A stretch of 64,000 nucleotides of DNA from Bacteroidota bacterium (lineage in GTDB: Bacteria; Bacteroidota; Bacteroidia; Bacteroidales; FEN-979). The notes under the pieces were generated by a model. The model was not told the DNA's origin. It did not search any database and saw only the letters and a program-made list of their open reading frames with translations. The stretch spans positions 2,503 to 66,502 of the forward strand of contig JBAXFM010000001.1 in the NCBI GenBank assembly GCA_037139855.1, in the 5' to 3' direction. Shown one piece after another: positions 3,801 through 45,053 of this stretch (position 1 is its first letter; each line of letters opens with the position of its first letter). A program made the translations under genes and the position numbers.

Positions 3801-3976
3801 TGAACCCTTTCCGCTTCAAGAAAAAAATGATAGCCTGGTGTGAATATCACCATGCTTCATTCAATCCTCAGATCTGCGACAAATTCGGGAAACCGGGTGG
3901 TGATGACAAGCGCGGCGGGGTTGAGTATTTCACAATTGCTAACGCTAAATTTTCTAACTCAACTATTTTCCCATGA
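866..3976 (+). CDS. DNA primase fused to a P-loop (D5/VirE-type helicase-like) domain
   Basis: 1036 aa. N-terminal CHC2 zinc finger (CPKCGKSGKGKG...YKCFSCEYGG) as in DnaG primases. Toprim-like IQEGEKKAVKA ... FLIDADWD. C-terminal P-loop SNGRTGKS followed by IFMDDV (Walker-B-like). Confidence 0.85.
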   Translation: MKITQDCIQRILSVVKVEEVISDFCKLERSGASLYTKCPKCGKSGKGKGLIVTPAQGIYKCFSCEYGGTSPINFIMDMKNTSYPDAIKYLAEKYNVLLEYEEKPKGPQVKNGVKELTFRDRQLASSGLSDADQKATVVIDENTQKVVDVFETGTRDQYGKIAPGDDMIIWYYDLEGKPVMFTRPKGNKQEHLFRIRWQNPDLHHDKSGRPMKYSSPSGSGSHLFFPEEIREAYRNRRVIKRLFIQEGEKKAVKACKHGLTSVGVMGIQNIGHNNKLPYELQLIVQACKVEEVIFLIDADWDALSNDLKPGSRVDQRPYSFYWAVRNFRDYFKTFINLGIYLEIYFAYIRKDDKIPVYEKGVDDLLAGTLRDSENDLFNDIKTAINEKDGQGKYIQLNKITTVSDLKLLEFWSLQDSNSFAMKYKETLQNLPEFYIGRHKWKFDEAGKLVPAQPLQDDEQFWEKITKEDRKGNDYTQYRFRYLYAYNFLHRRGFGRIEMAGRNYALCQITDKIVQTVEAYQIRDYIMDFSKAILATNNREELVEVMDMLYRGGKMYFGPDSLGNVDFVKPVFESADKRHQYLFFKNNYWKITSDGVDEKPLSDLQNYVWRDRVNDFDGVLMGKEMIKVNRIDIDYILANKLDPMEYEPVMGQFDVEFSPEAMECHFARFIHNTGEFFWNKVQHQKTRKKLEKDQRSIEERYETNLHMVSKMTAIGYLLHKYRDKSCEKAVIAMDGKLSEVGESNGRTGKSIMGFAIGQVVPQCYIGAKSKDLEHDPFLFEEVTEKTDNIFMDDVRANIDFEFFFPIITGKLMVNVKGVKRWTISERETPKIFITTNHAINGSSASFKDRQALIAFSDYYNEEFKPVDDFGINFFDEWDDKQWNLFYNFMADCLRLYFQAGDMGWGYNHSGLIQPPTERLDQRRLRQFIGEDFLTWAGEYFNVEDPESIDTSTGQNLNIDIPRAELYNNFLEKTPTQRKFMNPFRFKKKMIAWCEYHHASFNPQICDKFGKPGGDDKRGGVEYFTIANAKFSNSTIFP

Positions 3977-4188
3977 CAGAATCTGATAGGGCGGCTTTAA
4001 GTGGCCAGGGAATCATTATTATGCGGTCACAGTGTGTCCGTGAAGGTGAATGGACGATTTACCAGTACTTTTTGGGTAGTTGGATCAAATCACTTCCATG
4101 CGGGTGTGGTTGGGAAAGCAAAGAATTATGTGATGAAGCAATCGACAGAATAGTATTGAAGCATAAAACATTTGTCAAGGATGAGTAA
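3973..4188 (+). CDS. hypothetical protein (71 aa)
   Basis: ATGA overlap with the primase stop. Cys-rich (CGCGW...C). No recognisable family. Confidence 0.55.
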   Translation: MTESDRAALSGQGIIIMRSQCVREGEWTIYQYFLGSWIKSLPCGCGWESKELCDEAIDRIVLKHKTFVKDE

Positions 4189-4205
4189 CAAATACATTTT
4201 TGCCG

Positions 4206-4275
4206 AAAATGATACAAAAAATGTCAATAATGATACACAAAACGCCAATTAAGTTGCATAAAACGCCAATTAAAT
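4206..4275 (+). promoter_or_regulatory. Two pairs of direct repeats, each phased 21 bp apart, upstream of ORF 4284
   Basis: AATGATACA at 4208 and 4229. AAAACGCCAATTAA at 4239 and 4260. The 21-bp spacing is two helical turns. Lies in the 95-nt gap before ATG 4284. Confidence 0.4.
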
Positions 4276-4283
4276 AGCAAATC

Positions 4284-4793
4284 ATGAAAACAGAACTTGA
4301 GATTACCCAGGATTTATTGGAAATCATTGCTGAATGCGAATTTAGAATTCACAATGCAAGAAAGGCTATTTCAGTACTGACCGGAATAGTTTATGAAGAT
4401 GGCCCATGGAATTGGGATGAAAAAATTAAAGTTGCAAATACTGATTTGTTTCATGCGCCGGTACAAGATACGCAACTACCTGTACCCCCCCCTGTTACGA
4501 AACAGAAGGAAAAGCAGAAGAGAACGTTCGCCGAAAAGAACTGTGAAAATTGCGGTAAACCATTTATGCCAACGCATAATAAACAACGCTTCTGCAGAAA
4601 AGAGTGTAATCCGAACGTGGCAAAGAAACAACCAACAGGCAAAGAAATCATTGAAGAAATGCTCGAATTAAACCATCAACCGGTTGCTCCGGAAAAGCAT
4701 GTTGACCCGGTTGCATTTAAAGCGAAGATGGATCAGATCAGGCATGATATCCCCATCCAGCGGGAACGGCCAAATGTTACACGAGGATTTTAA
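4284..4793 (+). CDS. hypothetical protein with a zinc-ribbon-like motif (169 aa)
   Basis: CENCGKPF...x10...FCRKEC four-Cys motif flanked by Lys/Arg-rich segments. Possible nucleic-acid binding. Confidence 0.6.
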   Translation: MKTELEITQDLLEIIAECEFRIHNARKAISVLTGIVYEDGPWNWDEKIKVANTDLFHAPVQDTQLPVPPPVTKQKEKQKRTFAEKNCENCGKPFMPTHNKQRFCRKECNPNVAKKQPTGKEIIEEMLELNHQPVAPEKHVDPVAFKAKMDQIRHDIPIQRERPNVTRGF

Positions 4794-4803
4794 ACGAAAG
4801 CAA

Positions 4804-5202
4804 ATGGAAAAGGAACAGGTTAAATTAAGAATTCATGGTGTTGTGTCGGATGTGATGATTAAATTTCATTTAAGCAATAAGCATCTTCATGCTCAAGAGA
4901 TACCGCGAAATTTAGTTGTTGAGCACATGCAGTGGGTGCGTGATACGATCATCAGGGTCCTGGATAAAATCGAGGATCCGGATGATGTAAATTCAGAGCG
5001 GCCGCCGATCGGTATCATGCCCAGGAATGTGTTTGAATACATGATAAAAGATCAGCGATTTGCAGAACTTTCAAATACGATCAGCAGATTTCTTTCCTTC
5101 GGTCGGTTAATTCCCATTGCATGGCTTACAGAATACAACGAATTGATAGAATATTTGAGGTTACATAAACTCAGCGAACATGAAAATCCGGATCCCAAAT
5201 GA
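4804..5202 (+). CDS. hypothetical protein (132 aa from ATG 4804)
   Basis: The track ORF opens at 4684 but overlaps the previous gene by 110 nt. ATG 4804 (MEKEQVKLRIHG...) lies 11 nt after the upstream stop. Confidence 0.55.
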   Translation: MEKEQVKLRIHGVVSDVMIKFHLSNKHLHAQEIPRNLVVEHMQWVRDTIIRVLDKIEDPDDVNSERPPIGIMPRNVFEYMIKDQRFAELSNTISRFLSFGRLIPIAWLTEYNELIEYLRLHKLSEHENPDPK

Positions 5203-5372
5203 TAAGGAAATCCATTCTGTGGTTGACAACCTGGATGGTGAACAGGTAATGAATGTTATCTGGAAAGAAAAGGAGTCCCGTTAAAATTCACAGAGTTGCC
5301 TCCTGATACTCCATTTACGGATGATCGCACGCTCGTGGAACTTGTTTATCCTAATTCCTTATAATTTTTCAA

Positions 5373-5537
5373 ATGGAAGAGAAACCAATTATATTCAGTA
5401 CACCCATGGTCCGGGCAATCATGTTCGGACAGAAACACATGACCAGGCGATTAAGCGGATTAGAAAGAATAAACCGCCGGGCTGACGACTGGGTTGGTGA
5501 CAGCCATATTTCGCATATAATCCTATTCAATCAATAA
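5373..5537 (+). pseudogene. 54-aa ORF resembling only the N-terminus of ASCH-like phage proteins (possible gene remnant)
   Basis: MEEKPIIFSTPMVRAIMFGQKHMTRR matches from memory the N-terminal signature (P-I-L-F-S-x-P-M-V-x-A-I-x-x-G-x-K-x-x-T-R-R) of a common phage protein family that is normally over 100 aa. Here the frame stops after 54 codons. Below the track length cut-off. Confidence 0.3.
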
Positions 5538-5572
5538 CGGTTCATTTGCTATCTTTGAACAAAAATACACTC

Positions 5573-5788
5573 ATGAGTAAGACAGTTGAATTATCCAAGG
5601 CTCAAATAAGCACGATATTGTCGTGCATCAATGAGCGTGAGGCTTTATATCTCAAGGAAATTGAGGTTAACAAGGATAAAAAGGAACAGGTACTGATGGT
5701 CAAAGGCTGGAAAAAGAAGCTGATCGTTATTGAGGAGCTCCAGCGCCTGTTCGGTTATTCACGTTTATCTGTTCCCGGCAGGAAATAG
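5573..5788 (+). CDS. hypothetical protein (71 aa from ATG 5573)
   Basis: The track ORF opens at TTG 5546. The first ATG is at 5573 (MSKTVELSKAQ...). Last gene before the early-operon terminator. Confidence 0.5.
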   Translation: MSKTVELSKAQISTILSCINEREALYLKEIEVNKDKKEQVLMVKGWKKKLIVIEELQRLFGYSRLSVPGRK

Positions 5789-5858
5789 CACCGCACCATC
5801 TCCCCCAGGTTGATCGATCTCCCGCCGGTCGATGCTCAGGATCACTTCAGAAAGAACT

Positions 5859-5885
5859 AAGCCAGGCATTCGCCTGGCTTTTTAA
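5859..5885 (+). terminator. Rho-independent terminator closing the early operon
   Basis: AAGCCAGGC-attc-GCCTGGCTT perfect 9-bp stem followed by TTTAATT. Confidence 0.7.
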
Positions 5886-6116
5886 TTGGTGAAGTATGGA
5901 GCTGGGTGAGCGGCAGCGAATACAGCTCGGTACGAACTCCTTATTCATTTCTCTCCTCCGGGGTCTGTTTTCGCCCCGCCGCCCCCTTTCTTTCTGAAAA
6001 ATTATAGTGCAAAGGTACGGTATGAAAATCGCAAAGAGTTGAAGGCCTTATACATATATATATTATTTATTAATTTATCTTTTTGACAAGTATACTTATA
6101 AGAATAATAGAAAATA

Positions 6117-6306
6117 TTCGTGCTTTCGTGCGCACTAAAATTTTTAAAATGTAACGATCTGATTTTGAGATTTTATGAGGGTGTTTTTTACTGCACGAAA
6201 ATCGCACGAAAAGCACGAAAAGCACGAAAATCGGTACTACTTTTTTAAATGCATTGATACTCAAATGGTTGCAAAATGAAAGTACGAAAGCACGACTGCA
6301 CGAAAA
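6117..6306. repeat. Iteron array: nine copies of GCACGAAA(A)-type motif next to an A/T-rich tract
   Basis: Bottom strand: TTCGTGC and TTTCGTGC at 6117..6131. Top strand: GCACGAAAA at 6193, 6204, 6213 and 6222. GTACGAAA at 6282, GCACGA at 6290, GCACGAAAA at 6298. Preceded by a near-pure A/T stretch at ~6048..6116. Confidence 0.8.
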
Positions 6307-6465
6307 TATTTGGACTTTTTACCAAGTATGCCTGTCACTTCGCACAAACTTTTTTTGCTATTGGAATTCTGAGATTACTATTGGATTTTTGCTTAATAAT
6401 TCTTATATGAAGGTACCATAAACATTGACCTTTATAAAGACAACAGTCGAACTTAATTTTACTCC

Positions 6466-6984
6466 ATGGCATCAAACATCATCATCAGGGTCCGGTGTGA
6501 ACCGTACCTGATCCGGTTTCTTGAAACGCTGTACGGGGGAAGCCCGATTTCGTTTCCGAAAAATTCAAATTTCAATGCCATCCTGGATGTGTTCCTTGAC
6601 AAACCGCCACTGGGTCATCACGACCCGGATCATGGTGAAAATACCCTGGCGATCCAGTTGCCATATTTCGAGCTGAAGGATATCCGATCGTACAATTATC
6701 TCACCGAGACAAAGCAGCGGATCTTCATCAAGGAAATCTGGAAGTTTTTCAAAATAACCTACCGCCAGGATATCGCAAAATGTGTCGTGATGGGACTGGA
6801 TCGCAAGGATGCAATCGAGCTTTTTATCGAAAAATACGATTTGCCGCTCGATTGTTGGGATAGTCTGGAAAAAGATTTTCAGAGATACCTGAAACTCAGG
6901 TCAAAGAAACGCTTATTTAAAAACAATATTAGTTCCGCAGTTAAAGACCATGATTGTCCGGCCGTTTCCATGTGTGGAAATTAG
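6466..6984 (+). CDS. hypothetical protein (172 aa), first gene of the late block
   Basis: Clean ATG start after the iteron region. No recognisable motif. Confidence 0.65.
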   Translation: MASNIIIRVRCEPYLIRFLETLYGGSPISFPKNSNFNAILDVFLDKPPLGHHDPDHGENTLAIQLPYFELKDIRSYNYLTETKQRIFIKEIWKFFKITYRQDIAKCVVMGLDRKDAIELFIEKYDLPLDCWDSLEKDFQRYLKLRSKKRLFKNNISSAVKDHDCPAVSMCGN

Positions 6985-7020
6985 CGAACATGGCGAACGC
7001 GTAGCATAAAAATACAAATT

Positions 7021-7476
7021 ATGACCATCCAGAAAAATTCAAATCTGATCCCTTCGGTATGCAAAATATCGGTTGTCCCGGTTAGTGAAGTCAGTTACCT
7101 GGGAAATACCACGGATCGATTTCATAAGTCCATTGATTTTTCGGGTAGCATTGGTTGGACCGGGATATATTTCACCCCGGGAACCGCTGAATTCGTCGAG
7201 AAGCCAAAGGATACCGACGCGGGTGATCTGTTGGAACAATCCCTGAAATTCATCTTCCCTGGTGAAGATGATGCAAACGTTTCAGCGCTGGATGCGCTCG
7301 TTGGTCCTCCGGTTCTGGTGAAGATCGAATACACCACCGGGGCAGCAAAAATAATGGGCGACATGGTCAACGGCGCAAAGCTTTCACTGACTAACCAGGT
7401 TGCATCCAAGGGGGCAGGCTACCAGTTCGAATTCACCTGCTCGGCTACATACCGCGCCTGCTGGCTTGATGCGTAG
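7021..7476 (+). CDS. hypothetical protein (151 aa)
   Basis: Compact ORF directly upstream of the protease/capsid pair. Possibly structural by position only. Confidence 0.65.
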   Translation: MTIQKNSNLIPSVCKISVVPVSEVSYLGNTTDRFHKSIDFSGSIGWTGIYFTPGTAEFVEKPKDTDAGDLLEQSLKFIFPGEDDANVSALDALVGPPVLVKIEYTTGAAKIMGDMVNGAKLSLTNQVASKGAGYQFEFTCSATYRACWLDA

Positions 7477-7544
7477 CCGCCTTTTCAGTCCTTTATACCA
7501 CCACTCACACCTTATAATATTGTGAACTCATTTAAGAGTTTACA

Positions 7545-8429
7545 ATGTTAAACCGCATTTTCTCCATTTTGGGCGCGCAATGGCTGATCCACGAGGATAC
7601 AGCCGTTTCTTATTTGCCTGTGCTGATTGCCTTCATCAAGGGACAGGAAATTCTGCTCAAGCCTGGTGAAGAGAAAAAGCCTTATGTGGTTGCATGGTCC
7701 GCCACCGATGATCAGATCAACACGGTTGGAAGATGGCAACTCGATGATGAAATGCTTCCGGAAAATTCTGTGGCAGTGATCCCCATCGAAGACGTGATCT
7801 GCACCTGGGACAGCATGAGGCTGGTCCAACTGCTGCAGGAGGTAAAGGCAAACGACAAAATCAATTCCGTTTTGTTCATCGTCAACTCTCCCGGTGGGAT
7901 GGTGACGGGCATCGACCTGCTGACAAATGCCATCAAGGATCTTGGAAAACCATCCGTTGCCCTGGTGATCGGCATGGCTGCATCAGGAGCAATGTGGGCG
8001 ATATCCGGATGCAGCTACCGGATTGCAAGTTCTCCAATGGATATGATCGGGTCCATCGGGACCAAAACTTCCATCCAGGATTTTGCTGGCCTGTTGGAAA
8101 AGATTGGAATCAGCATTAAAGATATCTATGCCACACTGTCAACCCGCAAGGATGAACAGTACCGGGCATTCAAGGAATCCGGTGATCTCGCTCCCATCAT
8201 AGAAATGCTGGATTTCGTCAACGAGGTTTTTCATAAAACGATCCAGGATAACCTGGGCATCGATGCCGGATCTGAAGTATTCACCGGTGCCATTTATTTT
8301 TCCGCAAAATCCCAGGAGTTGGGGTTGATCAATGAGATCAATTCCATGGACTATGCGCTTGCCAAAGCCTATCAGTTAGGACTCAAAAATAAAATTCTCA
8401 ATCAATCAAAATCACTAAAACTCTATTAA
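7545..8429 (+). CDS. S49 (SppA/ClpP-fold) serine peptidase, putative prohead protease
   Basis: LFIVNSPGGMVTG and GMAASGAMWAISGC match the S49 peptidase signature segments. Lies immediately upstream of the capsid gene. Confidence 0.8.
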   Translation: MLNRIFSILGAQWLIHEDTAVSYLPVLIAFIKGQEILLKPGEEKKPYVVAWSATDDQINTVGRWQLDDEMLPENSVAVIPIEDVICTWDSMRLVQLLQEVKANDKINSVLFIVNSPGGMVTGIDLLTNAIKDLGKPSVALVIGMAASGAMWAISGCSYRIASSPMDMIGSIGTKTSIQDFAGLLEKIGISIKDIYATLSTRKDEQYRAFKESGDLAPIIEMLDFVNEVFHKTIQDNLGIDAGSEVFTGAIYFSAKSQELGLINEINSMDYALAKAYQLGLKNKILNQSKSLKLY

Positions 8430-8432
8430 ACA

Positions 8433-10595
8433 ATGAAACAATTTTTTGCGACCATCCTGGCATTCCTCAGTATCCAGGCATTTGCCAAGGATAAGGATGG
8501 TAAGAGCATTTTGACCGAGGAACAACAAACAAAGCTGAATGCTGAGTTTGGTGACGAGTTCACCAGCCAGTTTGTTCAGGCTCTCTCAAAGGATCCGGAG
8601 GGTAATTCCACGGACAACGCTACCATCGGCGCCATGGTCACTGCGATGACATCAAAGTTACAGGCCGCTGCCGCTGAAAATAACACATTGCTTGCAGCAA
8701 AGAAAAAGTCTGACAGCGACCTGCTCGCTGAAAAGGCTGAAAAGGACAGGCTCGCCGGCATTGTAACCGAAAAGGATGGCATCATTGCCACACTCAAAAA
8801 AACTCCGGAAGACGACCCGGAAGCAAACCGTAAGGATATGAAGACAGATCCCAAAAACTGGAAACCGACAGGTCAGGATACTCACCTTTTCGGTAAAACC
8901 GATTCATTCTTTGCCCTTGACGCAGGTCACGGATACAACAAACGTGCTTATGCAGCACTTTGTGCCATGCATGGTATCGAAATGGGCGCACCGCGCGCTG
9001 CTTCATCGCTTGATTATGCATCGCTGAAAAGTGACCTGGGCGAATATTACCGCGTGAGGATGCAGGATCGCATCCAGAGTTTCCTGCAGGAAATGCCCGA
9101 CCTGGAGAAAGTATTCCCGACGGAATCAGGGTACCAGGATCAGGCCGTGCTCGTGAATCTCTTCCTCACCGATGATTTCTCACAGGCCGACAGCACTGCC
9201 CTGGGCAGCAGCTTTGACAACATGGTTAAAGGCGGCTACAAGTTCGAGCCGGAAATCCTCACCATGTACGATGTGATGTTCGTTCATAAATTCTCTCAGC
9301 TGAAGGAACTGGAAAAGACCTGGATCGGTTTCCTGAACCGTGAAGGATCATCGACCATGAAATGGTCATTCATCCAGTACATTCTGGTGGAAACCGCCAA
9401 GAAACTGAAGAACGAAAAGACCAACCGGTCGATCCGCGGGGTTCGCAAAAACCCGACGCAAAATGTTGCCGGCACTTCACTGCAGGCCAGCAATGGTTTG
9501 TTGAAGTTCATCAAGAACCAGATTGCAGCTTTCAAGGTAAAACCCTTTGCCCTGGGCGAATGGACACCTTCCACCATTGCGGCATACGTGAAGAATGCCA
9601 CGAAGTTGATTCCTGAAGTGTTGCGTGACTCCGGCCGGATCGTACTCTACATGAGTACCGACGCTTTGAGCGATTACCACACCAACCTGGAGACCCTTTA
9701 CGGTTTGAACCAGGATTACAAGGCCGATATCATGTACGTGAAGGAATATCCTTCGGTAAAGATCATCCCGGTGATCGGGATGGCTCCGAGCAAACGCATG
9801 ATCTGGACCCTCGAGGGCAACATCAAGCAGTTCGAAGATCAGCCTGGTGAGATGCTCAACTTCAACATCGAGCAGCAGGACTGGACTTTGAAAGTCTGGA
9901 GCAACTGGCGCGAATCCGTATGGGCATACCTGGTTGGAAAGAAGTACGCTTCTGCCGCCGAGATGCCATCAGATTACAGCACTCAGCTGATCTTCTGCAA
10001 CGATGTGGATGAGGCTGCCGATTACTTCATCAGCGCAGATGCCAACGACACCACCCCATCGGTGTTGAATCACACCTCCCTGGTGACTGTTGCCAATTCA
10101 CAGGCTACTGCCATCACCACATTCGACGACTGTGCCGTTGGCCAGGAAGTCAGGATCAAGTGCGGCAACGCCACCAACGCTTCCACCATCGCAGCTTCCG
10201 GGAACTTCTCCCTGATCACTGCAGCCTGGACTCCTTCGGTAGGGGATATCCTTTATCTGAAGAAAAGAAGTGACGGCAAGTTCATTGAACTCAAGAGGGA
10301 TGTTGTCAGCAGCACTGCCACGGCAATTGCAGCGGATGATGTAACGCCTGATGTGACCGGCAATGACAAGTTCATCACGGTTGCCAATTCACAGGCCACG
10401 GCCATCACAACCTTCGACAATGCTGTTACGGATAAGGTATACACCATCTACGGCGGCAGTGCTACGAATGCTTCAACGATTGCAAACGCCGGGAACTTCG
10501 TTCTCACCGCTGCAATGACTCTCACCGCAGGTACCTGGATCAGACTCCAGAAAGCAGCGAACGCTAAGTTCTACGAAATCGACCGCAGCGCATAG
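8433..10595 (+). CDS. putative major capsid protein with scaffold-like N-terminus and two C-terminal repeat domains (720 aa)
   Basis: Starts 4 nt after the protease stop. The Ala/Lys/Glu-rich coiled-coil N-terminal ~150 aa is delta/scaffold-like. Large central domain. The call is positional (protease then capsid) plus compositional; no search was run. Confidence 0.65.
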   Translation: MKQFFATILAFLSIQAFAKDKDGKSILTEEQQTKLNAEFGDEFTSQFVQALSKDPEGNSTDNATIGAMVTAMTSKLQAAAAENNTLLAAKKKSDSDLLAEKAEKDRLAGIVTEKDGIIATLKKTPEDDPEANRKDMKTDPKNWKPTGQDTHLFGKTDSFFALDAGHGYNKRAYAALCAMHGIEMGAPRAASSLDYASLKSDLGEYYRVRMQDRIQSFLQEMPDLEKVFPTESGYQDQAVLVNLFLTDDFSQADSTALGSSFDNMVKGGYKFEPEILTMYDVMFVHKFSQLKELEKTWIGFLNREGSSTMKWSFIQYILVETAKKLKNEKTNRSIRGVRKNPTQNVAGTSLQASNGLLKFIKNQIAAFKVKPFALGEWTPSTIAAYVKNATKLIPEVLRDSGRIVLYMSTDALSDYHTNLETLYGLNQDYKADIMYVKEYPSVKIIPVIGMAPSKRMIWTLEGNIKQFEDQPGEMLNFNIEQQDWTLKVWSNWRESVWAYLVGKKYASAAEMPSDYSTQLIFCNDVDEAADYFISADANDTTPSVLNHTSLVTVANSQATAITTFDDCAVGQEVRIKCGNATNASTIAASGNFSLITAAWTPSVGDILYLKKRSDGKFIELKRDVVSSTATAIAADDVTPDVTGNDKFITVANSQATAITTFDNAVTDKVYTIYGGSATNASTIANAGNFVLTAAMTLTAGTWIRLQKAANAKFYEIDRSA
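10053..10592 (+). repeat. Tandem in-frame duplication of a ~97-aa module at the capsid-protein C-terminus
   Basis: GTTGCCAATTCACAGG occurs at 10089 and 10380 (period 291 nt). Peptides TVANSQATAITTFD...ATNASTIA..GNF are shared by residues 541-637 and 638-720. Confidence 0.85.
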
Positions 10596-12445: not shown

Positions 12446-13051
12446 GTGAATTCAAAGTTTTTCAATATCGACGAGCTGGAGGATCCCGGTGATGATCAGC
12501 AAAGCGCTGACACATCAGGGATCCGCATTGAACGTTTCCTGCAGCTGCACGAACAGCGAATTGAGAGTATCAAGGATCTGACAGGCCGTTTGCCAGGTGA
12601 AGGTGAGATTTTCTTCTTGTGGACCGTAAATTCATTCAATGCGTTCACCTTCATTCCGTTCATCATCAAAGAATGTGGACCTATACAGCAACTGATCCTG
12701 GCCACTTATTCCATCAACATCCGGATCATTGATGCCCTGGTGCGGCTGATCGACAAAGGGCTGATCCTTTCTGTTGATATTTTCATCAGTGATTCAGTCC
12801 GCAGCCGGTTGCCCAAAGTGTATGATCACCTGATGGCGCTGGTCGAGACCAAACCGGTGAGGGTAAAATATTCCTGGAATCATGCCAAGATTGCCCTGAT
12901 CCGCTCCGGTGATCACTATTTCGACGTGGAAAGGTCCGGGAACTGGGGCGAAAACGCCCAGCATGAGCAATATGTTTTCCTGAATAACAGAAGTGTGTTT
13001 GAATTTCGTAAAAATGAAATCCTCAATGGAATTAACCCCTGCACAGTATAA
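12446..13051 (+). CDS. PLD-like (HKD-type) domain protein, possible nuclease (201 aa, GTG start)
   Basis: YSWNHAKIALIRSGDHYFDVERSGNWGENA resembles the HxK...GSxN signature of single-HKD PLD-superfamily proteins (Nuc/BfiI type). The upstream beta-alpha pattern (LILATYSIN...ALVRLIDKGL..VDIFISD) fits the fold. The Asp spacing is non-canonical. Confidence 0.5.
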   Translation: MNSKFFNIDELEDPGDDQQSADTSGIRIERFLQLHEQRIESIKDLTGRLPGEGEIFFLWTVNSFNAFTFIPFIIKECGPIQQLILATYSINIRIIDALVRLIDKGLILSVDIFISDSVRSRLPKVYDHLMALVETKPVRVKYSWNHAKIALIRSGDHYFDVERSGNWGENAQHEQYVFLNNRSVFEFRKNEILNGINPCTV

Positions 13052-13913
13052 AGAGATCGAAAAGCTCGCGGCGGTCAACTACAGCGTGAAACAAATCGCC
13101 ATGTACCTGGATGTGGATCCCAAAGCATTCCAGAAAGAGTTCAGCAACCTTGAATCGAAGGTCCGCTATCATTATGACCGGGGGTTGCTCGTTACCCAGG
13201 CGGAACTGGACATGGCCAACCTCAAAAGGGCAAAGGATGGCAACATGACTTCCATCCAGCAGTGGAAAAAGGATGCAAATTCTCAAAAGCTTGACAACCT
13301 GAAAAAACAGGTGTTTTTCGATGAAGAGCACAATGAATATGAACAGCTGCAGGGGCTGATCGAGCGGGGAGAGACGGGAAAACTGCCTGAAAAGGTTGTA
13401 AACTTTTATGAGCAGATTGATTTCATCCGTTGCCTGTACAACAAATACGAATCGAAGAGTTTTATCATCAACGCCGTGGTTGTTCAATACCCGCGGCTGT
13501 CCAAATACCAGGCAACGCAGCTTTATTATGAAACCCTGAATTTCTTCAACCTGGATAACCAGGTGAAAGTTGAAGCCTGGGCGAATATCTATGCCGACCG
13601 GTTGGATAACATGGCCAGGATCTGTTATGAGCTGAATGACTTCGAAACCGCCCGCCGGCTGACCATGGACAGCGCCGAGCTGCGCGGTGTAGGCAAGGAT
13701 AAGCCGAACCAGGTTCCTGATGAACTGCTTGACCGCCGGCCGGTATTTTACACCATCCGGATCGAGGATATCGGGGTGTCGAAAATCAATCGCAATGATC
13801 TGGCTGCCTTCATTGATAACCTGGATATCACCGAAAGGGAAAAATCAAAAGTGAAGCGTGAAGCCATGATTGAAGATGTTCCATTTGAAATGCTGCCAGA
13901 TGAGCAAAACTAA
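13026..13913 (+). CDS. putative terminase small subunit (295 aa from ATG 13026)
   Basis: N-terminal HTH-like segment (NYSVKQIAMYLDVDPKAF). The gene overlaps the start of the large terminase. The call is mostly positional. ATG 13014 is also possible. Confidence 0.4.
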   Translation: MELTPAQYKEIEKLAAVNYSVKQIAMYLDVDPKAFQKEFSNLESKVRYHYDRGLLVTQAELDMANLKRAKDGNMTSIQQWKKDANSQKLDNLKKQVFFDEEHNEYEQLQGLIERGETGKLPEKVVNFYEQIDFIRCLYNKYESKSFIINAVVVQYPRLSKYQATQLYYETLNFFNLDNQVKVEAWANIYADRLDNMARICYELNDFETARRLTMDSAELRGVGKDKPNQVPDELLDRRPVFYTIRIEDIGVSKINRNDLAAFIDNLDITEREKSKVKREAMIEDVPFEMLPDEQN

Positions 13914-15585
13914 GATAACGACTCAGGAGGCCGATATCCGTTACTCGAATTGGATATCCACGCTGATCGATCTGATCAAGCCGGCAAATCTTTATCTCTA
14001 TGGTGGCCGTGGAACGGCAAAATCAACTGAAATACTGGCAAAAAGGACCATTGATGTGGTATATGACATGCCCAGGGCAAGTTTTGCCTTTGTATCGGAT
14101 ACTTACGTGAACCTGATGACCAACATTATTCCGGCCATTTTGACAGGATGGGAGGGGAGAATGAAATTCCTGGAGAACTATCATTTCGTGGTCGATGTGC
14201 CGCCTCCGGATCACTGGCCCAAACCCCTGGTTAAAACCTTTTCATTCAAACATACTATTTCAACCTTCAACGGTTGTAAGTTCTTTCTTACTTCTCTTGA
14301 CAGGCCATCATCGAACGCCGGGATCTCCGTAGTGCACCATTTTGGCGATGAAGCAAAGTACCTCCAGTGGGATAAATTAAGTAAGCTTTTTCCGACGCTC
14401 AGGGGAGACTATGCCCTTTATGGCCATTCCCATTACTTTATGGGTCAAACGTTCTGCAGCGACATGGCTGATCCCAGTGTGGGAGAAAGTGACTGGATGC
14501 TGCGCATGGAAAAGAACATGGACAAAGAACAGATCACCCGGATCATCCAATCTGCCATTATCCTCAATGAAATTAACCTGGAGCTTTACCAGGCTGAGCA
14601 AAAAGGTGAGGATATCAAACGCATTGACAACATCAAAAAAAATCAGGCTCGCTGGATAGAGCGCATCCGCAAGATTCGCCAGGACAGCACATTCTTCTAC
14701 ATAGTCAGTTCCTTTGCCAATGCCGATATACTTACCCTGCGATACTTCCAGAACCTGTTGGCATCATTGACATTTGAAGAGTTTAAGACTGCAGTACTGT
14801 CTATCCGTAAGACCCTGGAGAAGGGCGCCCGTTTCTATGGTGCCCTGGCAGATAAGCATTTCTACATTGATGGCTACAACTATGACTACTATGACAAGTT
14901 TGGCATACGTGACAATGTGTCTCAGACATCAGCAGGGCTGAAGTATGTACAGCATGATAAGATACTCGAGGGTGGGTTTGATGCAGGCAACATGATGAGC
15001 CTGGTAATAGGGCAGGAGCAGGGCAATCAGTATAGGGTACTCAAAGGTATGTACACGCTTACACCAGAGTGGATAAGGGAGTTAGGCGATAAGTTCATTA
15101 CATTCTTTGAACCACATAAGCGTAAGGTATTGCATCTGTACCATGACAGATCAACCAATCAGTATCGTAAGACAGGACGTGACGTTGCTACTCAACTCAA
15201 ACATGATATCGAATACAATAAGGCAGGCACACGTACTGGATGGATCGTACAGCTTATGAGTGTGGGACAGGGCAACATATCGCACTCAGATGAGTTCAAC
15301 CTGATGAACATCATGATGGGTGAGAAGGATAAGAGATTACCCAAACTGTTAATAGATAAGTTTGAGTGCAAGGAACTCAAGAGCCAGCTCGAGATCACTC
15401 CCGTTACCAAGAGCAGCAAGGGTGAGATACAGAAGGTAAAGAAAGGCGATAAGTTATCGCCATCACGATTGGCAATGGAGTCAACAAACTTCTGTGATGC
15501 GTTCAAATATCTGCTATGCAGGCACAAATGGCTTGCCATAGCCAGGCAGAAGAGGGGCCTTACCTTTGGCTCCCTTAACATGTAA
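13900..15585 (+). CDS. terL: terminase large subunit
   Basis: Walker-A-like YLYGGRGTAKST and Walker-B-like VVHHFGDEAKY. ~560 aa, typical TerL size. ATG 13900 chosen; the track ORF opens at TTG 13870 and ATG 13876 is possible. Confidence 0.85.
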   Translation: MSKTKITTQEADIRYSNWISTLIDLIKPANLYLYGGRGTAKSTEILAKRTIDVVYDMPRASFAFVSDTYVNLMTNIIPAILTGWEGRMKFLENYHFVVDVPPPDHWPKPLVKTFSFKHTISTFNGCKFFLTSLDRPSSNAGISVVHHFGDEAKYLQWDKLSKLFPTLRGDYALYGHSHYFMGQTFCSDMADPSVGESDWMLRMEKNMDKEQITRIIQSAIILNEINLELYQAEQKGEDIKRIDNIKKNQARWIERIRKIRQDSTFFYIVSSFANADILTLRYFQNLLASLTFEEFKTAVLSIRKTLEKGARFYGALADKHFYIDGYNYDYYDKFGIRDNVSQTSAGLKYVQHDKILEGGFDAGNMMSLVIGQEQGNQYRVLKGMYTLTPEWIRELGDKFITFFEPHKRKVLHLYHDRSTNQYRKTGRDVATQLKHDIEYNKAGTRTGWIVQLMSVGQGNISHSDEFNLMNIMMGEKDKRLPKLLIDKFECKELKSQLEITPVTKSSKGEIQKVKKGDKLSPSRLAMESTNFCDAFKYLLCRHKWLAIARQKRGLTFGSLNM

Positions 15586-15728
15586 CACAATCCTTATAGG
15601 CAATGCCCATATATGTGTGATTTCGTAAAGTACGAAACCACTGCATGTGTGGGATCCTCCATGCCCTTTTGTCATATATCCGCCTACCAGCGCGGGTGAA
15701 CGTGCCCCCCGGCGGCTGGGCGGGTCGT

Positions 15729-16784: not shown

Positions 16785-17103
16785 TGCTCGCAGCGGCTCG
16801 CCTTGAGGGCGGCTTTCTTTTTTGAAATCACCGCAAAGAAAGAAAGCCGGCAAAGAAAAACACGGTGGCCAGCGCACTACTTATTACTCAAATTTAGTGC
16901 AAAGTTAACCTCACGAAAATATCATCTCTCTAAACGCGGTCTCCTGACGGATCCACCGCCCGTTGGGTTCATTCATATCCTGCGGATACTGACCTGAACA
17001 TTTGTTCCAGAATTTTCATTCCGGTTATGGCAGTGGCATAAATTTTTCATTCATCAGGCGGAGCCAGATGCCTAAATAAGTCCCCAGGGCAGGGGCACAC
17101 ACA
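16785..17103 (+). promoter_or_regulatory. Structured leader element L2 upstream of the 136-aa ORF (paralog of L1)
   Basis: Hairpin GGCTTTCTTTTTTG(16811..16824)/CAAAGAAAGAAAGCC(16834..16848). Core GGCCAGCGCACTACTTATTACTC (16867..16889), 22/23 identical to L1. Hairpin GCGGT..ACCGC (16936..16959). Hairpin TATCC-tgc-GGATA (16976..16988). Confidence 0.6.
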
Positions 17104-27745: not shown

Positions 27746-29311
27746 ATGAACATCACGAAGAAAACTTTTCTCATGTCATTTGCCGGTAACCCGATGCGTT
27801 ACCAGCTCACTCCCGGAACATCAGGCGGCGGCGGTGGTGGCGGCGTTCCCATCGACGGGGTTCTTTCCCTTATTGAAATCGCTTTCACCGATATCGATTC
27901 AACCCCCGATCATGCCATGACTGTTACGTTCATGGGCGAAACCAGAACATTTACGCTCAAGAATGAACCGACCACCAAGGATCACCTGCCGATTGCGGAT
28001 GATTCGTGGACTCCGACCCGCTGGAGCGAAGAATGTTTAAACTACCTGATGAATGATGTTCAGATTTCACGCGCTTACGACATGCTGAATGACGGTTCAA
28101 ACATCTACCTCACTGCAAGAACCGCCTCTCCCGATTATGACTGGAGCGCCGGCAGCAATACAATTGTTGGAGTTACCGTAACCACTTACCAGGCAGGGCA
28201 GGTTGGAACAGCCGGAACCGTGGAAGGCGTTCTGATGCAGGTTTGGAAGAATGGAACGGAAAAGCTCGGGGAAGATTACAAGCCGGTTACTGCAGATGGA
28301 AGCGTGAAATTTGAGGCGCAGGAGTACATCTACGCCAGTTTGCTGCAGGTTCCGCCGCCCAGGTTCCGCTTATCGTCAGATACTTTTTTTCATCACATCT
28401 ACACCGATTACTTTCTGAAGTACCGCACTGTATTTTGCGATCGCGTTGCCGGGGTATTTCTTCCCAGAACTTACACCGATCCGGATCATATCTTTTGCTA
28501 TGCCATTGCCGGAGGATTGAACAGGGAAGACCTGGTTGCCAATAATGCTGCCCTGGTTGATTACTTCAGCCTGACAGCCACGCGCAAAAAGTTCATGACC
28601 TGGTCGCCGCCGTCGAAGCTTACCGACAAAGTGGAAACGCACAGCCTTTTCTATGCGGTGCAAACCCCGGGCATCACATCCATTCAGATGAAGGCGCACA
28701 TTTACAATGGCGACACCGGTTCCACCATCAACATCACCCCGGCGCTTTCGGTCCAGTACTGGTCGGTGTATGAATTCATGGCCGGTTACACACAGCTCAA
28801 CCTGGCTGCTCAATTGAGCGGGAATGTTGATCGCTGGGAACTTTACCTGGTCGATAATGCTGGGAATGTGATATCCGATATCAGGGAGTTTGTCCTGGAT
28901 AAAAGGTATCATGAAAACACACGGTACTTCCGCTTCCGGAACTCGTGGGGCACGTATGATTCTTTGAGGTGTACAGGAGTTTTTGAGAATCTTGTTGAAA
29001 ATGATCGTGAAAAGGTTAATTACACTAGCGAAGACATTGAAACAACCTTTAATGCACCAGGTGCTCACACATCGATCAGCGAATCTCTGAACTACAAGGC
29101 AAATACCGGCTGGCTCACGAAAGATTTCCTGCAGTATCTGAGGGATTTCATGCTGTCCTCTGAAATATTTGAGTTGGAGGATGGCCGGTTGCTCAAATGT
29201 TTGTTGACGTCCAAAAAAACAACATTGACAAAGGATGCAAAGTACAATTATGACCTTGCATTTGAATATGAAAGGGCGTACAACAGTTTTTTTTTTCAAA
29301 CATTAGAATGA
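27746..29311 (+). CDS. hypothetical protein (521 aa), putative distal tail/baseplate component by position
   Basis: First gene after the tape measure. Contains a Gly7 tract (27824..27844) and a T10 run near its 3' end (29287..29296). Confidence 0.65.
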   Translation: MNITKKTFLMSFAGNPMRYQLTPGTSGGGGGGGVPIDGVLSLIEIAFTDIDSTPDHAMTVTFMGETRTFTLKNEPTTKDHLPIADDSWTPTRWSEECLNYLMNDVQISRAYDMLNDGSNIYLTARTASPDYDWSAGSNTIVGVTVTTYQAGQVGTAGTVEGVLMQVWKNGTEKLGEDYKPVTADGSVKFEAQEYIYASLLQVPPPRFRLSSDTFFHHIYTDYFLKYRTVFCDRVAGVFLPRTYTDPDHIFCYAIAGGLNREDLVANNAALVDYFSLTATRKKFMTWSPPSKLTDKVETHSLFYAVQTPGITSIQMKAHIYNGDTGSTINITPALSVQYWSVYEFMAGYTQLNLAAQLSGNVDRWELYLVDNAGNVISDIREFVLDKRYHENTRYFRFRNSWGTYDSLRCTGVFENLVENDREKVNYTSEDIETTFNAPGAHTSISESLNYKANTGWLTKDFLQYLRDFMLSSEIFELEDGRLLKCLLTSKKTTLTKDAKYNYDLAFEYERAYNSFFFQTLE

Positions 29312-29353
29312 TAAGCACAGTAACACCTGTGCCGGTTGCGGTTCGGGTTTACG

Positions 29354-29764
29354 ATGCATCAGAATATTCAACACAATACAGTTAATATGACCTACACCGA
29401 TGTATTTAATACCATTAAATCTGCGCTGACCGGTCGTGCTACAGGCACAAAGGTGCAGGTTGAAGATCATGAAGCTGCTGAGATCGCCCTGCTCAATTAC
29501 ATTGAGCAATTGAAGTCACAAACATCTGGATCAATCGTTAGGGAGGCACACGCTTACGCAACAAAAGGAGTAAGCTGCAATCTTACCTGGAGCCTCGTGT
29601 TCCCCGACAGCAACTACACCTACAATGTAAATGGTGTTGATGCGAAGGGCAACCCGGTTCAGATTTACCTGGTAAGCAAATCAACGACAAAACTGGTTGT
29701 TAAAACCCTGGTGAATGCCACTTTAAATGCAATTGCAATGCCTTATTCAGGAATAACCGCTTAA
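29354..29764 (+). CDS. hypothetical protein (136 aa from ATG 29354)
   Basis: The track ORF opens at TTG 29336. The first ATG is 29354 and ATG 29387 is also possible. Confidence 0.5.
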   Translation: MHQNIQHNTVNMTYTDVFNTIKSALTGRATGTKVQVEDHEAAEIALLNYIEQLKSQTSGSIVREAHAYATKGVSCNLTWSLVFPDSNYTYNVNGVDAKGNPVQIYLVSKSTTKLVVKTLVNATLNAIAMPYSGITA

Positions 29765-34795: not shown

Positions 34796-35053
34796 ATGTC
34801 GCGCATCAATTTTGAAGAGATCTTCGCATCTTTTCGCACCAAGTTCCCTCCAGTTCAATCTTTAAAGGACGCATCGCTGAAGTTCACCACTTCGGAGATC
34901 AATGAAATGATGGCCGAATTCATTCCCGACCTGGAGTGGCCCCGTGAGGGGATCACCCGGTTTATGATTGACCAGGGTTATAAATATGAGCCGGTAGAGG
35001 TAAATGAACGGGTCCGTTATTTCTGGCTAATCGGGCAAGGTCCGGAAAATTAG
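34796..35053 (+). CDS. hypothetical protein (85 aa from ATG 34796; 99 aa from ATG 34754)
   Basis: Protein-like sequence (MSRINFEEIFASFRTKF...). Converges on and overlaps the integrase 3' end by 92 nt, so its reality is uncertain. Confidence 0.4.
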   Translation: MSRINFEEIFASFRTKFPPVQSLKDASLKFTTSEINEMMAEFIPDLEWPREGITRFMIDQGYKYEPVEVNERVRYFWLIGQGPEN

Positions 35054-36152
35054 TAGTCAGTACCGCCGATGGCCGTACATTAAACTTGTCCAGGTAAACC
35101 TGAGTTTCCTCCAGGCTCGAGTGGCGCAGCTGCAGCTGCAGATCCCTTACGTTGATTCCGGCCTCGATGGCCATGCCTACACCAGTGTGCTTCAACGAAT
35201 AAATGTTTTTCTCAATTCCGTAGTGATCCGCAAACTCCCGCCATGCTTCCGCGATCCTGGTTGGAGCATATTCCTTTGGGCCCCGCTTCTGGTTTTTTGC
35301 AAAGACAAAGAAATTTCCCGGGAACTTCAGATCCAGCTTTGCCAGGATCGGCACCAGGGCATCCGGTATCTGCACGACCTGTTGCTTTTTATTCTTTGAA
35401 GTTGCGCCCAGGGTAATGATTGTTCGTTGCCTCAGGTTGATATGAGAAACCCTCATGCGCACGATCTCCTGCGGCCGGATAAAGCAATAGAAGATCAGGC
35501 AGGCGCAAACGTACAAATCGTAATTCCATTCCGGTAGGTACTGCTGCATGATCATAAGCTCGTCAACATTAAATGCAATAATCGAGGCATCCTGTTTCGG
35601 GAACCGTTCAATATTTTCGAAGGGATTCACCAGGATATATTCGCGCTTTACAAGGACTTTGAAGATGGTCTTCATGGCGGTCACCCGGTTGTTATAGGTC
35701 CTGTTCCCGTTTCCGAGCACTGATTTGGTATAATCCATGAACTCCTGGGCGTGGGTGTAATTGAAATCATCCACCGGCAGGTTGATTAATTTTTTGAATT
35801 CAAGCCACTCCTTGAATTTCTTCACCATGCTGTCGTAGGTATGGGTTGTTCTTTTACGGCACGAGGTGTTCTTCAGGGAGAGCACAAAATCGATGGCCAC
35901 GGAAATACTGGTGTATTTTCTCTCCAGGAAGGCAAATGGATTGTATCCCTGGCGTAATTTCTTATTGAGGACCTTGATCATCTCATGGCCTTTGTCCCGG
36001 CGTCCGGAACAAGTAAGAATTTTTGCAGGAACCCAATGCTGAAACCGGCGATATTTGCCGGTCTCCGGGGATCTGAATGAGTAGTAAACAAACCAGCGTT
36101 TTGTGATATCGCCGCCGGCGTCGAATAGTTTTGCGGTTTTAAAATTTTCCAT
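34962..36152 (-). CDS. int: tyrosine-type site-specific integrase
   Basis: 396 aa from ATG 36152 (MENFKTAKLFDAGGDITKRWFVYYSF...); the track ORF opens 60 nt upstream. Recombinase boxes are readable: CFIRPQE (Arg I), TSKNKKQQVV (Lys), YSLKHTG (box II variant) and LRHSSLEETQVYL (His/Tyr). Confidence 0.9.
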   Translation of the reverse strand: MENFKTAKLFDAGGDITKRWFVYYSFRSPETGKYRRFQHWVPAKILTCSGRRDKGHEMIKVLNKKLRQGYNPFAFLERKYTSISVAIDFVLSLKNTSCRKRTTHTYDSMVKKFKEWLEFKKLINLPVDDFNYTHAQEFMDYTKSVLGNGNRTYNNRVTAMKTIFKVLVKREYILVNPFENIERFPKQDASIIAFNVDELMIMQQYLPEWNYDLYVCACLIFYCFIRPQEIVRMRVSHINLRQRTIITLGATSKNKKQQVVQIPDALVPILAKLDLKFPGNFFVFAKNQKRGPKEYAPTRIAEAWREFADHYGIEKNIYSLKHTGVGMAIEAGINVRDLQLQLRHSSLEETQVYLDKFNVRPSAVLTTNFPDLARLARNNGPVHLPLPAHIYNPGQS

Positions 36153-36208
36153 TTCTTTTTTTGTTTTCCGACCTCGCCAGGTTAAAAAACATCGGTGAAA
36201 TGACCGCA

Positions 36209-36432
36209 GCATTTTGTTTCAAAATGTTTCAATTTTAATCACTGAAACTCTGAAACCCTTGATATTGTTGAGAACTGTAATCTTTGTAGCGGGGACAGGA
36301 CTAAATCCCAAATAACCCCCAATTAAATATCAAGTTGTTAGCTGCTTTTTCACTGTGTTTTTAAGTGCATTTTGAGGCATTTTGTTTCAGTTTGTGTTTC
36401 GGTTTTAATGGCCGTGTCCTTTGATATTATTG
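36209..36432. promoter_or_regulatory. Repeat-rich int upstream region: candidate attP arm sites and/or int promoter-operator
   Basis: ~60-bp imperfect direct repeat, with both copies reading GCATTTTGTTTCA...TTTTAAT...TTGATATTnTTG (36209..36270 and 36377..36432). GTTTCA at 36216 and 36226 faces TGAAAC at 36243 and 36251. GTTTCA/GTTTCG at 36384 and 36396. Confidence 0.4.
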
Positions 36433-37624: not shown

Positions 37625-38185
37625 ATGAACACACAAATCAACACAATGCCGGCAGGATTCCAACCTGCAAAATCTGAGTTCTTTGTCATGAATGGCGAAG
37701 TTCAATTTATTGAGGATAGATTGATCCACCCATTTGATGAGATAACCATTGACCAGGCTACGACCTTGCGCCAAGAACTGGATGCAGATCACAAAGCATT
37801 GGCCGGTCTCGATCTGCTCGGTGTCACCGATCCGATTGAGCAGCTGAAGCAATTTGTTTTCTGTCGGTTCGGTGAATTTGACAAAATAGCCGATCTCGAT
37901 GAAAATGGAATTACCCATTCTGAATACTGGGATTGCGGCCGCCGGCCTTGTGCAGCCGATGGGCTGTTGTGCAAATTCCCTGAGGTTAAATCCGGGCATC
38001 TCACTCATCACGACCTGGTCATCATTCGCATGGTGGCAAAGGATCTTACCAACCAACAGATTGCTGCCTACCTGGGCACCTCTGTTCATACCGTAAACAA
38101 GGAGTGTCAGCAGATCGCTCATAAAATCGGTGGGTTCTCAAAGTCGATAATCGCATTTTTTGCAGGAAAAAACAACATTCACTAA
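37625..38185 (+). CDS. LuxR/GerE-type HTH regulator with a Cys-containing N-terminal domain (186 aa)
   Basis: C-terminal LTHHDLVIIRMVAKDLTNQQIAAYLGTSVHTVNKECQQIAHKIG matches the LuxR-C HTH pattern (LT.RE..VL.L.A.G.SNKEIA..L.IS..TVK.H...I..KLG). The N-terminal ~125 aa are unassigned and include DCGRRPCAADGLLC. Confidence 0.75.
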   Translation: MNTQINTMPAGFQPAKSEFFVMNGEVQFIEDRLIHPFDEITIDQATTLRQELDADHKALAGLDLLGVTDPIEQLKQFVFCRFGEFDKIADLDENGITHSEYWDCGRRPCAADGLLCKFPEVKSGHLTHHDLVIIRMVAKDLTNQQIAAYLGTSVHTVNKECQQIAHKIGGFSKSIIAFFAGKNNIH

Positions 38186-44863: not shown

Positions 44864-45053
44864 TTCGTGCTTTCGTGCGCACTAAAATTTTTAAAATGTA
44901 ACGATCTGATTTTGAGATTTTATGAGGGTGTTTTTTACTGCACGAAAATCGCACGAAAAGCACGAAAAGCACGAAAATCGGTACTACTTTTTTAAATGCA
45001 TTGATACTCAAATGGTTGCAAAATGAAAGTACGAAAGCACGACTGCACGAAAA
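44864..45053. repeat. Iteron array (GCACGAAA-type, nine copies)
   Basis: Exact second copy of 6117..6306. Confidence 0.8.

Follow-up and report, generated by a model that had tools for sequence, protein, structure and literature searches.

The window analysed here is a 64,000-nucleotide stretch of contig JBAXFM010000001.1 from a Bacteroidota bacterium (assembly GCA_037139855.1), and the element in question is an array of short repeats in its 580-bp gene-free gap at 5886-6465. The gap separates an early operon, which includes the gene of a 1036-residue primase-helicase, from a long rightward block of genes that runs from 6466 on and includes an S49 head-maturation protease. The window contains a 38,747-bp genome written 1.65 times over, positions 1-25253 being identical to 38748-64000 without a mismatch. 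Judged by its tyrosine integrase and divergent control region, this genome is that of a temperate phage, and its gene order is shared with the cultured Polaribacter phage Leef_1 (Helgolandviridae). A megablast search of positions 5000-9000 against GenBank phages gave no match.

The repeat array and its parts

The array comprises 12-13 sites of the form G[C/T]AC[G/T]A, grouped into four sets between 6005 and 6306 (Table 1), and occurs once per genome. A first-pass annotation, made from the letters alone, had described nine iterons in a gap behind the early terminator. The terminator is a clear intrinsic one, the coordinates quoted for the array are all correct and the cluster is real, but the count was too low: GCACTA at 6132-6137, GTACTA at 6234-6239 and the outlying pair at 6005-6020 belong to it as well, and all of them are conserved.

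Chance origin of the cluster is excluded. Nine G[CT]ACGA[AC] sites fall within 190 bp of the unique genome, and not one of 300 dinucleotide shuffles places more than three in any 200 bp. When the 580-bp gap alone is shuffled, the mean is 0.18 sites and the maximum three, against ten observed. The motif GCACGAAA is found 13 times in the window, a count inflated because the repeated genome shows every feature below 25,253 twice, against 2.8 expected, and none of 100 shuffles reaches 13. The further half-sites to which attention had been drawn, an inverted pair at 15621-15637 beside a putative terL and single matches at 16912 (leader L2) and 23368 (a terminator loop), are at chance level, as are those at 12547, 23766 and 33971.

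The A/T-rich tract that precedes the left set had been called almost pure A/T. It is 88% A/T and ranks first among the 70-bp windows of the genome in A/T content; the least stable 50-mer of the genome also lies within it (dG -47.6, against a mean of -68.6 and a standard deviation of 4.8). Immediately to its right, two minus-strand copies at 6117-6131 face four or five plus-strand copies at 6193-6239 across the 55-bp spacer, which is about 75% A/T, so that A/T-rich DNA is flanked by repeats in opposed orientation. The proposal that 6048-6116 is the unwinding element agrees with its low stability, although the spacer between the opposed sets could serve instead or as well.

Table 1. Features of the array and its surroundings (positions are those of the window unless another record is named)
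Feature	Position	Strand	Description
Primase-helicase gene, 1036 aa	866-3976	+	DnaG-type CHC2 zinc ribbon, Toprim-like region, D5-like superfamily 3 (SF3) helicase, C-terminal helical domain
Intrinsic terminator	5859-5880	+	Ends the early (replication) operon; 9-bp stem with 6 GC pairs, then T-run; equivalent hairpins in relatives
C-rich block	5972-5986		CGCCCCGCCGCCCCC, then T-run to 5990; left edge of the module
Outlying opposed pair	6005-6020		TAGTGC-aaag-GTACGG, left of the A/T tract; TAGTGC is GCACTA on the bottom strand
A/T-rich tract	6048-6116		(TA)n, then T-rich run; candidate DNA-unwinding element
Left set	6117-6137	- and +	TTCGTGC 6117-6123 and TTTCGTGC 6124-6131, both (-); GCACTA 6132-6137 (+)
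Spacer between opposed sets	6138-6192		55 bp, about 75% A/T; alternative or additional melting region
Direct set	6193-6239	+	Four GCACGAAAA, starts 6193, 6204, 6213, 6222 (spacing 11, 9, 9), and GTACTA 6234-6239
Near-palindrome	6254-6264		TTGATAnTCAA, between second and third sets
Third set	6282-6306	+	GTACGAAA, GCACGACT (GCACGA), ct, GCACGAAAA; 8-bp spacing
Candidate late promoter, Bacteroidetes type	6361-6391	+	-33 TTG 6361-6363, 20-nt spacer, -7 GATTTTTG 6384-6391
Open reading frame (ORF) 172	6466-6984	+	172 aa; first gene after the array
Tyrosine integrase gene	34962-36212	-	
LuxR/GerE-type helix-turn-helix (HTH) gene	37625-38185		Early; in the divergent control region
Second view of the array	44864-45053		Same array at offset 38,747, 0 mismatches over 25,253 bases; no independent element
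Leef_1 array	L051 13900-14236 = NC_062750.1 about 29070-29406		GATTACA type

Conservation of the array among relatives

Two sets of relatives were compared; below, W stands for the window phage and L-numbers for the loci of its relatives. The close set consists of seven relatives whose neighbouring proteins are 55-88% identical and which keep the whole 450-bp intergenic region. Among them the site cores have a mean identity of 94% with 74% of columns invariant, the A/T tract 89% with 62%, and the remaining intergenic columns 77% with 33%, a pattern which indicates that the repeats are under purifying selection. Within sites GCACGA and GTACTA interchange, and the DNA between sites varies in blocks of 2-3 bases.

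The distant set was drawn from a larger family, in which 461 proteins are homologous to the C-terminal 586 residues of the primase-helicase, and consists of eight loci in which the DNA downstream of the helicase gene was read: L038 to L044 (61-45% helicase identity) and the human-gut phage MT835542 (40%). The first-pass annotation had made conservation of the cluster in related genomes one of the tests of its reading, and an ordered architecture is indeed present in all 14 loci that have a readable homologous primase-helicase and downstream DNA, as helicase identity falls from 86% to 40%. The order is as follows, the C-rich block and the closing T-run being recorded for the eight distant loci: a C-rich block; a GTGC-N4-GTAC pair; a (TA)n/T-rich tract; a '< < >' block of sites; a spacer of 55 or 32-33 bp; 3-5 direct copies, roughly one to each helical turn; another spacer, of about 55 bp, with TTGATAnTCAA; 2-3 direct copies at 8-9 bp; and a T-run.

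The individual parts are conserved to different depths. The C-rich block CGCCCCGCCGCCCCC stands at the same place in W, L015, L035, L016, L038, L040, L041, L042 and L044, and takes the form CCCCACACCCCC in Leef_1; it gives no convincing terminator hairpin together with its T-run (5972-5990). The TAGTGC of the outlying pair is identical in five of six aligned relatives, and the GTGC-N4-GTAC pair is found in more distant ones. The ATATATATATTATTT core of the A/T tract is kept even at 40% helicase identity. In the left set, TTTCGTGC and GCACTA together form the palindrome TCGTGC|GCAC(G/T)A, which is TCGTGC|GCACGA in most relatives, and the '< < >' arrangement is complete in W, L015, L035, L016, L033, L041, L042, L038, L040 and L044 and partial in L026 and L039.

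The spacer that follows is exactly 55 bp long in seven relatives (54-55 bp if an eighth is included) and measures 32-33 bp in a further four. The two lengths are some 22 bp apart, or about two helical turns, so that the helical face would be preserved, which suggests a constraint on the face of the helix on which the sites lie. In the direct set the first two GCACGAAAA copies are invariant in seven of seven relatives, and the '>>>' triple of the third set is present in all GCACGA-type relatives and in L038, with a doublet in L040. Between these two sets, ATTGATA.TCA is conserved in alignment A2 and TTGATAnTCAA is also present in L041, L042 and L050, being kept in relatives down to 40% helicase identity; this near-palindrome is a candidate site for another dimeric factor of host or phage origin.

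The repeat type follows the replication protein

While the layout is held constant, the repeat itself drifts. The motif is GCACGA in L039, L041 and L042, G[CT]ACTA in L038, L040 and L044, and GTACAC in L043. The distance from helicase gene to array ranges from 0.05 to 6 kb across the family; in L040 the module begins directly after the terminator of the primase-helicase gene.

A sister clade, found through an ORF172 homologue (42% identity), has related late genes and another helicase of 701 aa. BLASTP and hhalign find no homology between the 701-aa and 1036-aa helicases, and the former matches PHROG primase/helicase families. Starting 50 bp past the stop codon of the 701-aa helicase, the array of this clade has a pair of inverted CCTAC(A), then a 38-bp stretch that is about 90% A/T, then TGTAGGA six times in direct orientation (for example, L019 6170-6260: CCTACgtCCTAC, 38 bp A/T, 6 x TGTAGGA). 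It is nearly invariant in eleven loci, and the flanking coding DNA shows variation of the synonymous type. In Leef_1, the corresponding gap before gp39 is 520 bp long and contains twelve [GA]ATTACA sites, which point in both directions.

Since the sister clade and Leef_1 keep the layout with other motifs, the layout is constant while the repeat sequence follows the lineage of the replication protein: GCACGA, GYACTA and GTACAC go with the primase-helicase family, TGTAGGA is paired with an unrelated helicase, and in Leef_1, whose primase is distant, the repeat is GATTACA.

The primase-helicase as candidate partner

The primase-helicase matches Pfam PF01807, PF12965 (weakly) and a PHROG DNA primase family, and PF19263 is matched in its homologues. 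Its AlphaFold2 (AF2) model has a mean predicted local distance difference test (pLDDT) score of 89.8. In Foldseek searches the N-terminus of the model matches the DnaG primase 2au3, and the C-terminal half matches the African swine fever virus (ASFV) PrimPol, PriRep5 of the Staphylococcus aureus pathogenicity island (SaPI) SaPI5 (7ola/7om0; template-modelling (TM) score 0.54-0.57 per target) and E5 of monkeypox virus (MPXV). By its model, the protein belongs to the D5-like SF3 structural class. Residues 958-1025 are predicted to form a strand, three helices and a strand, an order compatible with a winged helix.

A candidate origin of vegetative replication

We consider it reasonably probable, from the comparative evidence, that the region at about 5970-6310 is the origin of vegetative replication for a self-loading SF3 (D5-like) primase-helicase. 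The first-pass annotation had offered a replication origin and a late-operon control array as equals; the comparison of relatives favours the origin, and a late-promoter role may coexist with it. The origin is favoured because, from relative to relative, the kind of array changes in step with the kind of replicative helicase, because opposed short repeats around A/T DNA match the origins of SF3 self-loading helicases, and because the primase-helicase falls structurally into that self-loading class. Among the proteins of the window, moreover, the primase-helicase alone is conserved in every one of the nine array-bearing loci tested. In addition, no TTATCCACA match, with up to one mismatch allowed, occurs in 5886-6465, and genome-wide counts of this DnaA box are below expectation; an absence of DnaA boxes from the gap is expected for a self-loading initiator.

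We infer that binding by the primase-helicase, melting and initiation all take place at the array. After induction, the primase-helicase would be made from the early operon, and its subunits would recognise the 6-8-bp repeats G[C/T]AC[G/T]A, with the C-terminal helical domain as the probable point of contact, at about one site per helical turn and in oppositely oriented sets. Hexamers may then assemble on both sides of the A/T-rich DNA (6048-6116 and/or 6138-6192) and open it, whereupon the helicase would load itself with no help from DnaA or a loader, and synthesis would be primed by the DnaG-type primase domain of the same protein.

Several observations weigh against the origin. Some concern position: in the window the array lies 2.0-2.1 kb past the helicase stop codon (3976), beyond five small ORFs and a terminator, and so is not directly 3' of the helicase gene as it is in L040 and the sister clade. 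In all clade A relatives examined (those of the primase-helicase type), moreover, the array stays with a conserved promoter and, as a rule, with the late operon, and this counts against an origin because a transcriptional control region would show the same linkage. Others concern the protein. The helicase was the query by which loci were retrieved, so that its constant presence is partly by construction. Its C-terminal winged helix we infer only from secondary structure and the overall PriRep5 match, and a profile of the helicase and C-terminal region finds nothing among PDB chains beyond the DnaG zinc ribbon. Sliding-window identity among six primase-helicases reveals no segment that clearly co-varies with the motif variant; the same comparison gives a weak and inconsistent motif-linked hint in the N-terminal zinc-ribbon region. 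Finally, GC skew, which had been put forward as a check, has no origin signature; it rises monotonically, following gene orientation, and its cumulative curve is uninformative here.

Alternative explanations

The array may instead control the late operon, with a phage regulator oligomerising on the repeats to activate or repress the promoter at 6361-6391, in the manner of NarL/BvgA-type heptad arrays or of enhancer-like upstream sites. We regard this as unlikely, although several observations favour it. The candidate promoter matches the Bacteroidetes consensus, TTG / TAnnTTTG. It is conserved 55-85 bp downstream of the array across the family (55 bp in the window): TTG-N20-GGA(A/T)TTTTGC is invariant in alignment A2, and TTG-N20-GA(A/T)TTTTG follows the array in all clade A relatives examined. 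In most relatives the array is the last element ahead of the morphogenesis genes, and cargo genes have been inserted far more often between helicase gene and array than between array and promoter.

A regulator is also at hand in the LuxR/GerE-type HTH protein, which is encoded early and belongs to a family that binds short repeats. As the binder, however, this protein is disfavoured: the window phage and L012/L013 have an identical array motif but different recognition helices in this protein, and L039, L041 and L043 keep the array without a detectable GerE HTH protein. No other small DNA-binding protein is common to all array-bearing loci. The product of the first late gene, ORF172, had likewise been named as a possible binder, but it has no recognisable DNA-binding fold. 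It falls into no Pfam, PHROG or NCBIfam family, its AF2 model (pLDDT 82.8) has no PDB, DNA-binding or small-terminase match, its sole structural match being Leef_1 gp39, and it is undetectable beside two arrays. The extent of the module points the same way, in that it reaches 400 bp upstream of the promoter with a conserved unwinding-prone tract and opposed sets, neither of which a simple activator site needs. In the sister clade, furthermore, the array abuts the helicase gene and two other genes stand between it and the ORF172 homologue.

Control and origin functions could also coexist, with the helicase-initiator itself acting as the regulator, as does the T antigen of simian virus 40 (SV40). 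One such arrangement, which we hold to be less likely still, is a combined SV40-type origin and early-to-late switch, in which the same SF3 primase-helicase would also occupy the promoter-proximal triple at 6282-6306. Late transcription from 6361-6391 would then be coupled to the concentration of the initiator or to replication itself. This would explain why, across the whole family, the array never parts from the late promoter and yet lies anywhere between 0.05 and 6 kb from the helicase gene.

It is improbable that the array is a packaging recognition site (pac or cosB-like) whose repeats are bound by the small terminase, on the models of the phage P1 pac site, in which four and three hexamers flank the cut, and of the R sites of lambda cosB, which precede the first head gene. 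The array does lie ahead of head-morphogenesis genes, its four and three direct repeats with a conserved possible bending or host-factor site between them resemble P1 pac, and the assemblies of L027 and L029 break inside the A/T tract or repeats. The terminase-like gene at 13870-15585 and the HTH-bearing gene before it (together the terminase-like region, 12993-15585), however, are 6.7-7.6 kb away. Identification of the former as a terminase (terL) is based on its position and size; searches of Pfam, PHROG and PDB sequences give nothing for the 571-aa product, and phages of Cellulophaga, Flavobacterium, Porphyromonas and Polaribacter have homologues that carry the annotation 'hypothetical'. 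For Leef_1, 3' cos ends have been predicted by PhageTerm (PMC8776804), and its record opens 83 bp past the homologue of 13870-15585, about 8 kb from the GATTACA array; because of that opening, the cos site of the window phage may lie near 15.6-15.7 kb, where the hairpin 15621-15637 is found. Independent contigs of the window phage start at 5893, 6180, 6439 and 4857, with no single terminus. ORF172 lacks a small-terminase fold, and the repeat motif changes with the helicase type.

That the conservation reflects a gene product, be it from ORF 6070-6264 on the minus strand (64 aa), from ORF 6254-6421 on the plus strand or in the form of a small RNA, is highly improbable. The minus-strand frame is open over 69-88 codons in six of seven relatives, although the sequence is rich in A/T. 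Variation, however, does not favour the third position of codons but falls in 2-3-base blocks between invariant hexamers, and it would exchange residues non-conservatively (FVLFVL against FVQFVQ). The frame could begin only with TTG and is broken in L035, an Rfam scan of the gap gives one sub-threshold match (E 0.9) and a tRNA scan none, and a single-strand fold z-score of -2.2 is explained by the inverted repeats themselves. The minus-strand ORF was accordingly rejected as coding on its block-wise variation and the broken frame of L035.

Comparison with known systems

The closest parallel to the proposed origin is found in the SaPIs, whose Rep and PriRep proteins are self-loading helicase-initiators that bind iterons through a C-terminal winged helix and need no loader (PMC9371898). 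The SaPI origin lies just 3' of rep and contains 6-12 penta- or hexanucleotide iterons, with an A/T-rich centre and at least two iterons on each side in opposite directions (PMC9371898). Like it, the phage array has short repeats of 5-8 bp in 6-12 or more copies, with opposed sets flanking A/T-rich DNA; it follows the helicase gene and marks the border of the replication module with the packaging-morphogenesis module; a D5-like SF3 helicase is fused or adjacent to a primase; and DnaA boxes are absent. Unlike in the SaPIs, the primase domain is of the DnaG type (zinc ribbon/Toprim) rather than an archaeo-eukaryotic PrimPol, the array is spread over about 300 bp in four sets with a palindromic junction, and both 2.1 kb of DNA and a terminator separate it from the helicase gene. 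The host is also different, being a member of the Bacteroidota, and the element belongs to a complete temperate phage and not to a satellite.

A second parallel is phage P4, in which the octamer TGTTCACC of ori and crr ('type I iterons') is present in direct and inverted orientation and is bound by the C-terminal domain of the alpha protein. The order of zinc-ribbon primase, Toprim, SF3 helicase and C-terminal DNA-binding region in alpha is that of the phage primase-helicase, and octamer-sized repeats in both orientations and separate clusters are common to the two systems. No sequence similarity to P4 is detected, however, and the P4 cis elements ori and crr are about 4.5 kb apart, whereas the phage sets all fall within 300 bp.

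The core origin of SV40 and polyomavirus likewise combines an SF3 helicase-initiator with opposed pentamer or hexamer repeats beside an A/T tract, placed between early and late units. That system is eukaryotic, with another fold of the origin-binding domain, and its role as an early/late switch is documented, whereas for the phage array such a role is a possibility.

Theta-plasmid and lambdoid iteron origins (RepA/pi/TrfA; lambda O) share with the array the direct repeats beside an A/T-rich unwinding element and a repeat that co-evolves with the initiator. Their iterons, however, are 17-22 bp long at a spacing of about 22 bp, as opposed to 6-9 bp at 8-11 bp here, and the Rep or O winged-helix proteins recruit host DnaB, usually with DnaA boxes, a route that does not apply to the phage array. 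The lambda origin, furthermore, is inside the O gene, while the array is intergenic. The P1 pac site also has four and three short direct repeats that flank a central region, but it is part of the small-terminase gene, with Dam sites in the hexamers, whereas the terminase region of the window phage is about 7 kb off.

Other observations around the array

The small ORFs between the primase-helicase gene and the terminator (3973-5788) are not conserved even among close relatives, and only a zinc-ribbon/HNH-like ORF at 4284-4793 recurs, at 29-47% identity. This interval is a hot spot for cargo genes, which in relatives include a methyltransferase, ASCH and HNH genes. In L040, a leucine-rich repeat (LRR) gene is the first late gene downstream of the array.

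A box (C/A)TTGACCTTTA is present at 6425-6434, exactly 40 nt upstream of the start codon of ORF172. The spacing is unchanged in L015, L035, the sister clade (L019, L022, L031) and L017, the last despite a different upstream context, while L026, L027 and L033 have another leader. The box thus travels with the ORF172 gene and not with the array, and it could be a promoter element or a leader or operator. Homologues of ORF172 are found on metagenome-assembled contigs of Bacteroidales/Bacteroidota from lakes; some sit within contigs 100-320 kb long, which shows them to be integrated.

The middle region of the LuxR/GerE-type protein is conserved and rich in Cys (C80, C104, C116). At the equivalent early position L039, L041 and L043 have a gene of about 118 aa in which no GerE HTH is detected, and the ORF of L039 weakly matches the middle of the GerE protein. 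Contig breaks are seen in the A/T tract or repeats at the start of L027, the end of L029 and the start of L048; as the break points differ, assembly or coverage trouble at A/T repeats is their likely cause. An exact search of viral contigs for GCACGAAAAGCACGAAAA returned seven loci, all coding for ARKARK-type repeats in unrelated phages and irrelevant to the array.

Significance for Bacteroidota phages

To our knowledge, the replication origins of Bacteroidota phages are essentially uncharacterised. Among these phages are the Helgolandviridae-like temperate ones, which are common in freshwater, marine and gut metagenomes. The array is most likely a known kind of element in a phage group without described origins. 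By analogy, its mechanism would be the Bacteroidota counterpart of the SaPI and P4 origins, and would extend a known principle rather than reveal a new one. A combined switch, if true, would be a case of replication-coupled late transcription in a bacterial virus that is run by the helicase-initiator.

A conserved origin module that is easy to recognise and has a lineage-specific repeat would provide a testable cis element for replicons and genetic tools in Bacteroidales and Flavobacteriia, and the cultured phage Leef_1, with its module of like design, offers a system for such tests. With 461 homologues of the helicase and at least five motif types, the module may also serve as a marker that pairs initiator helicases with their DNA specificity over hundreds of natural variants, and as a reference point for coverage-based replication signals of such phages in metagenomes.

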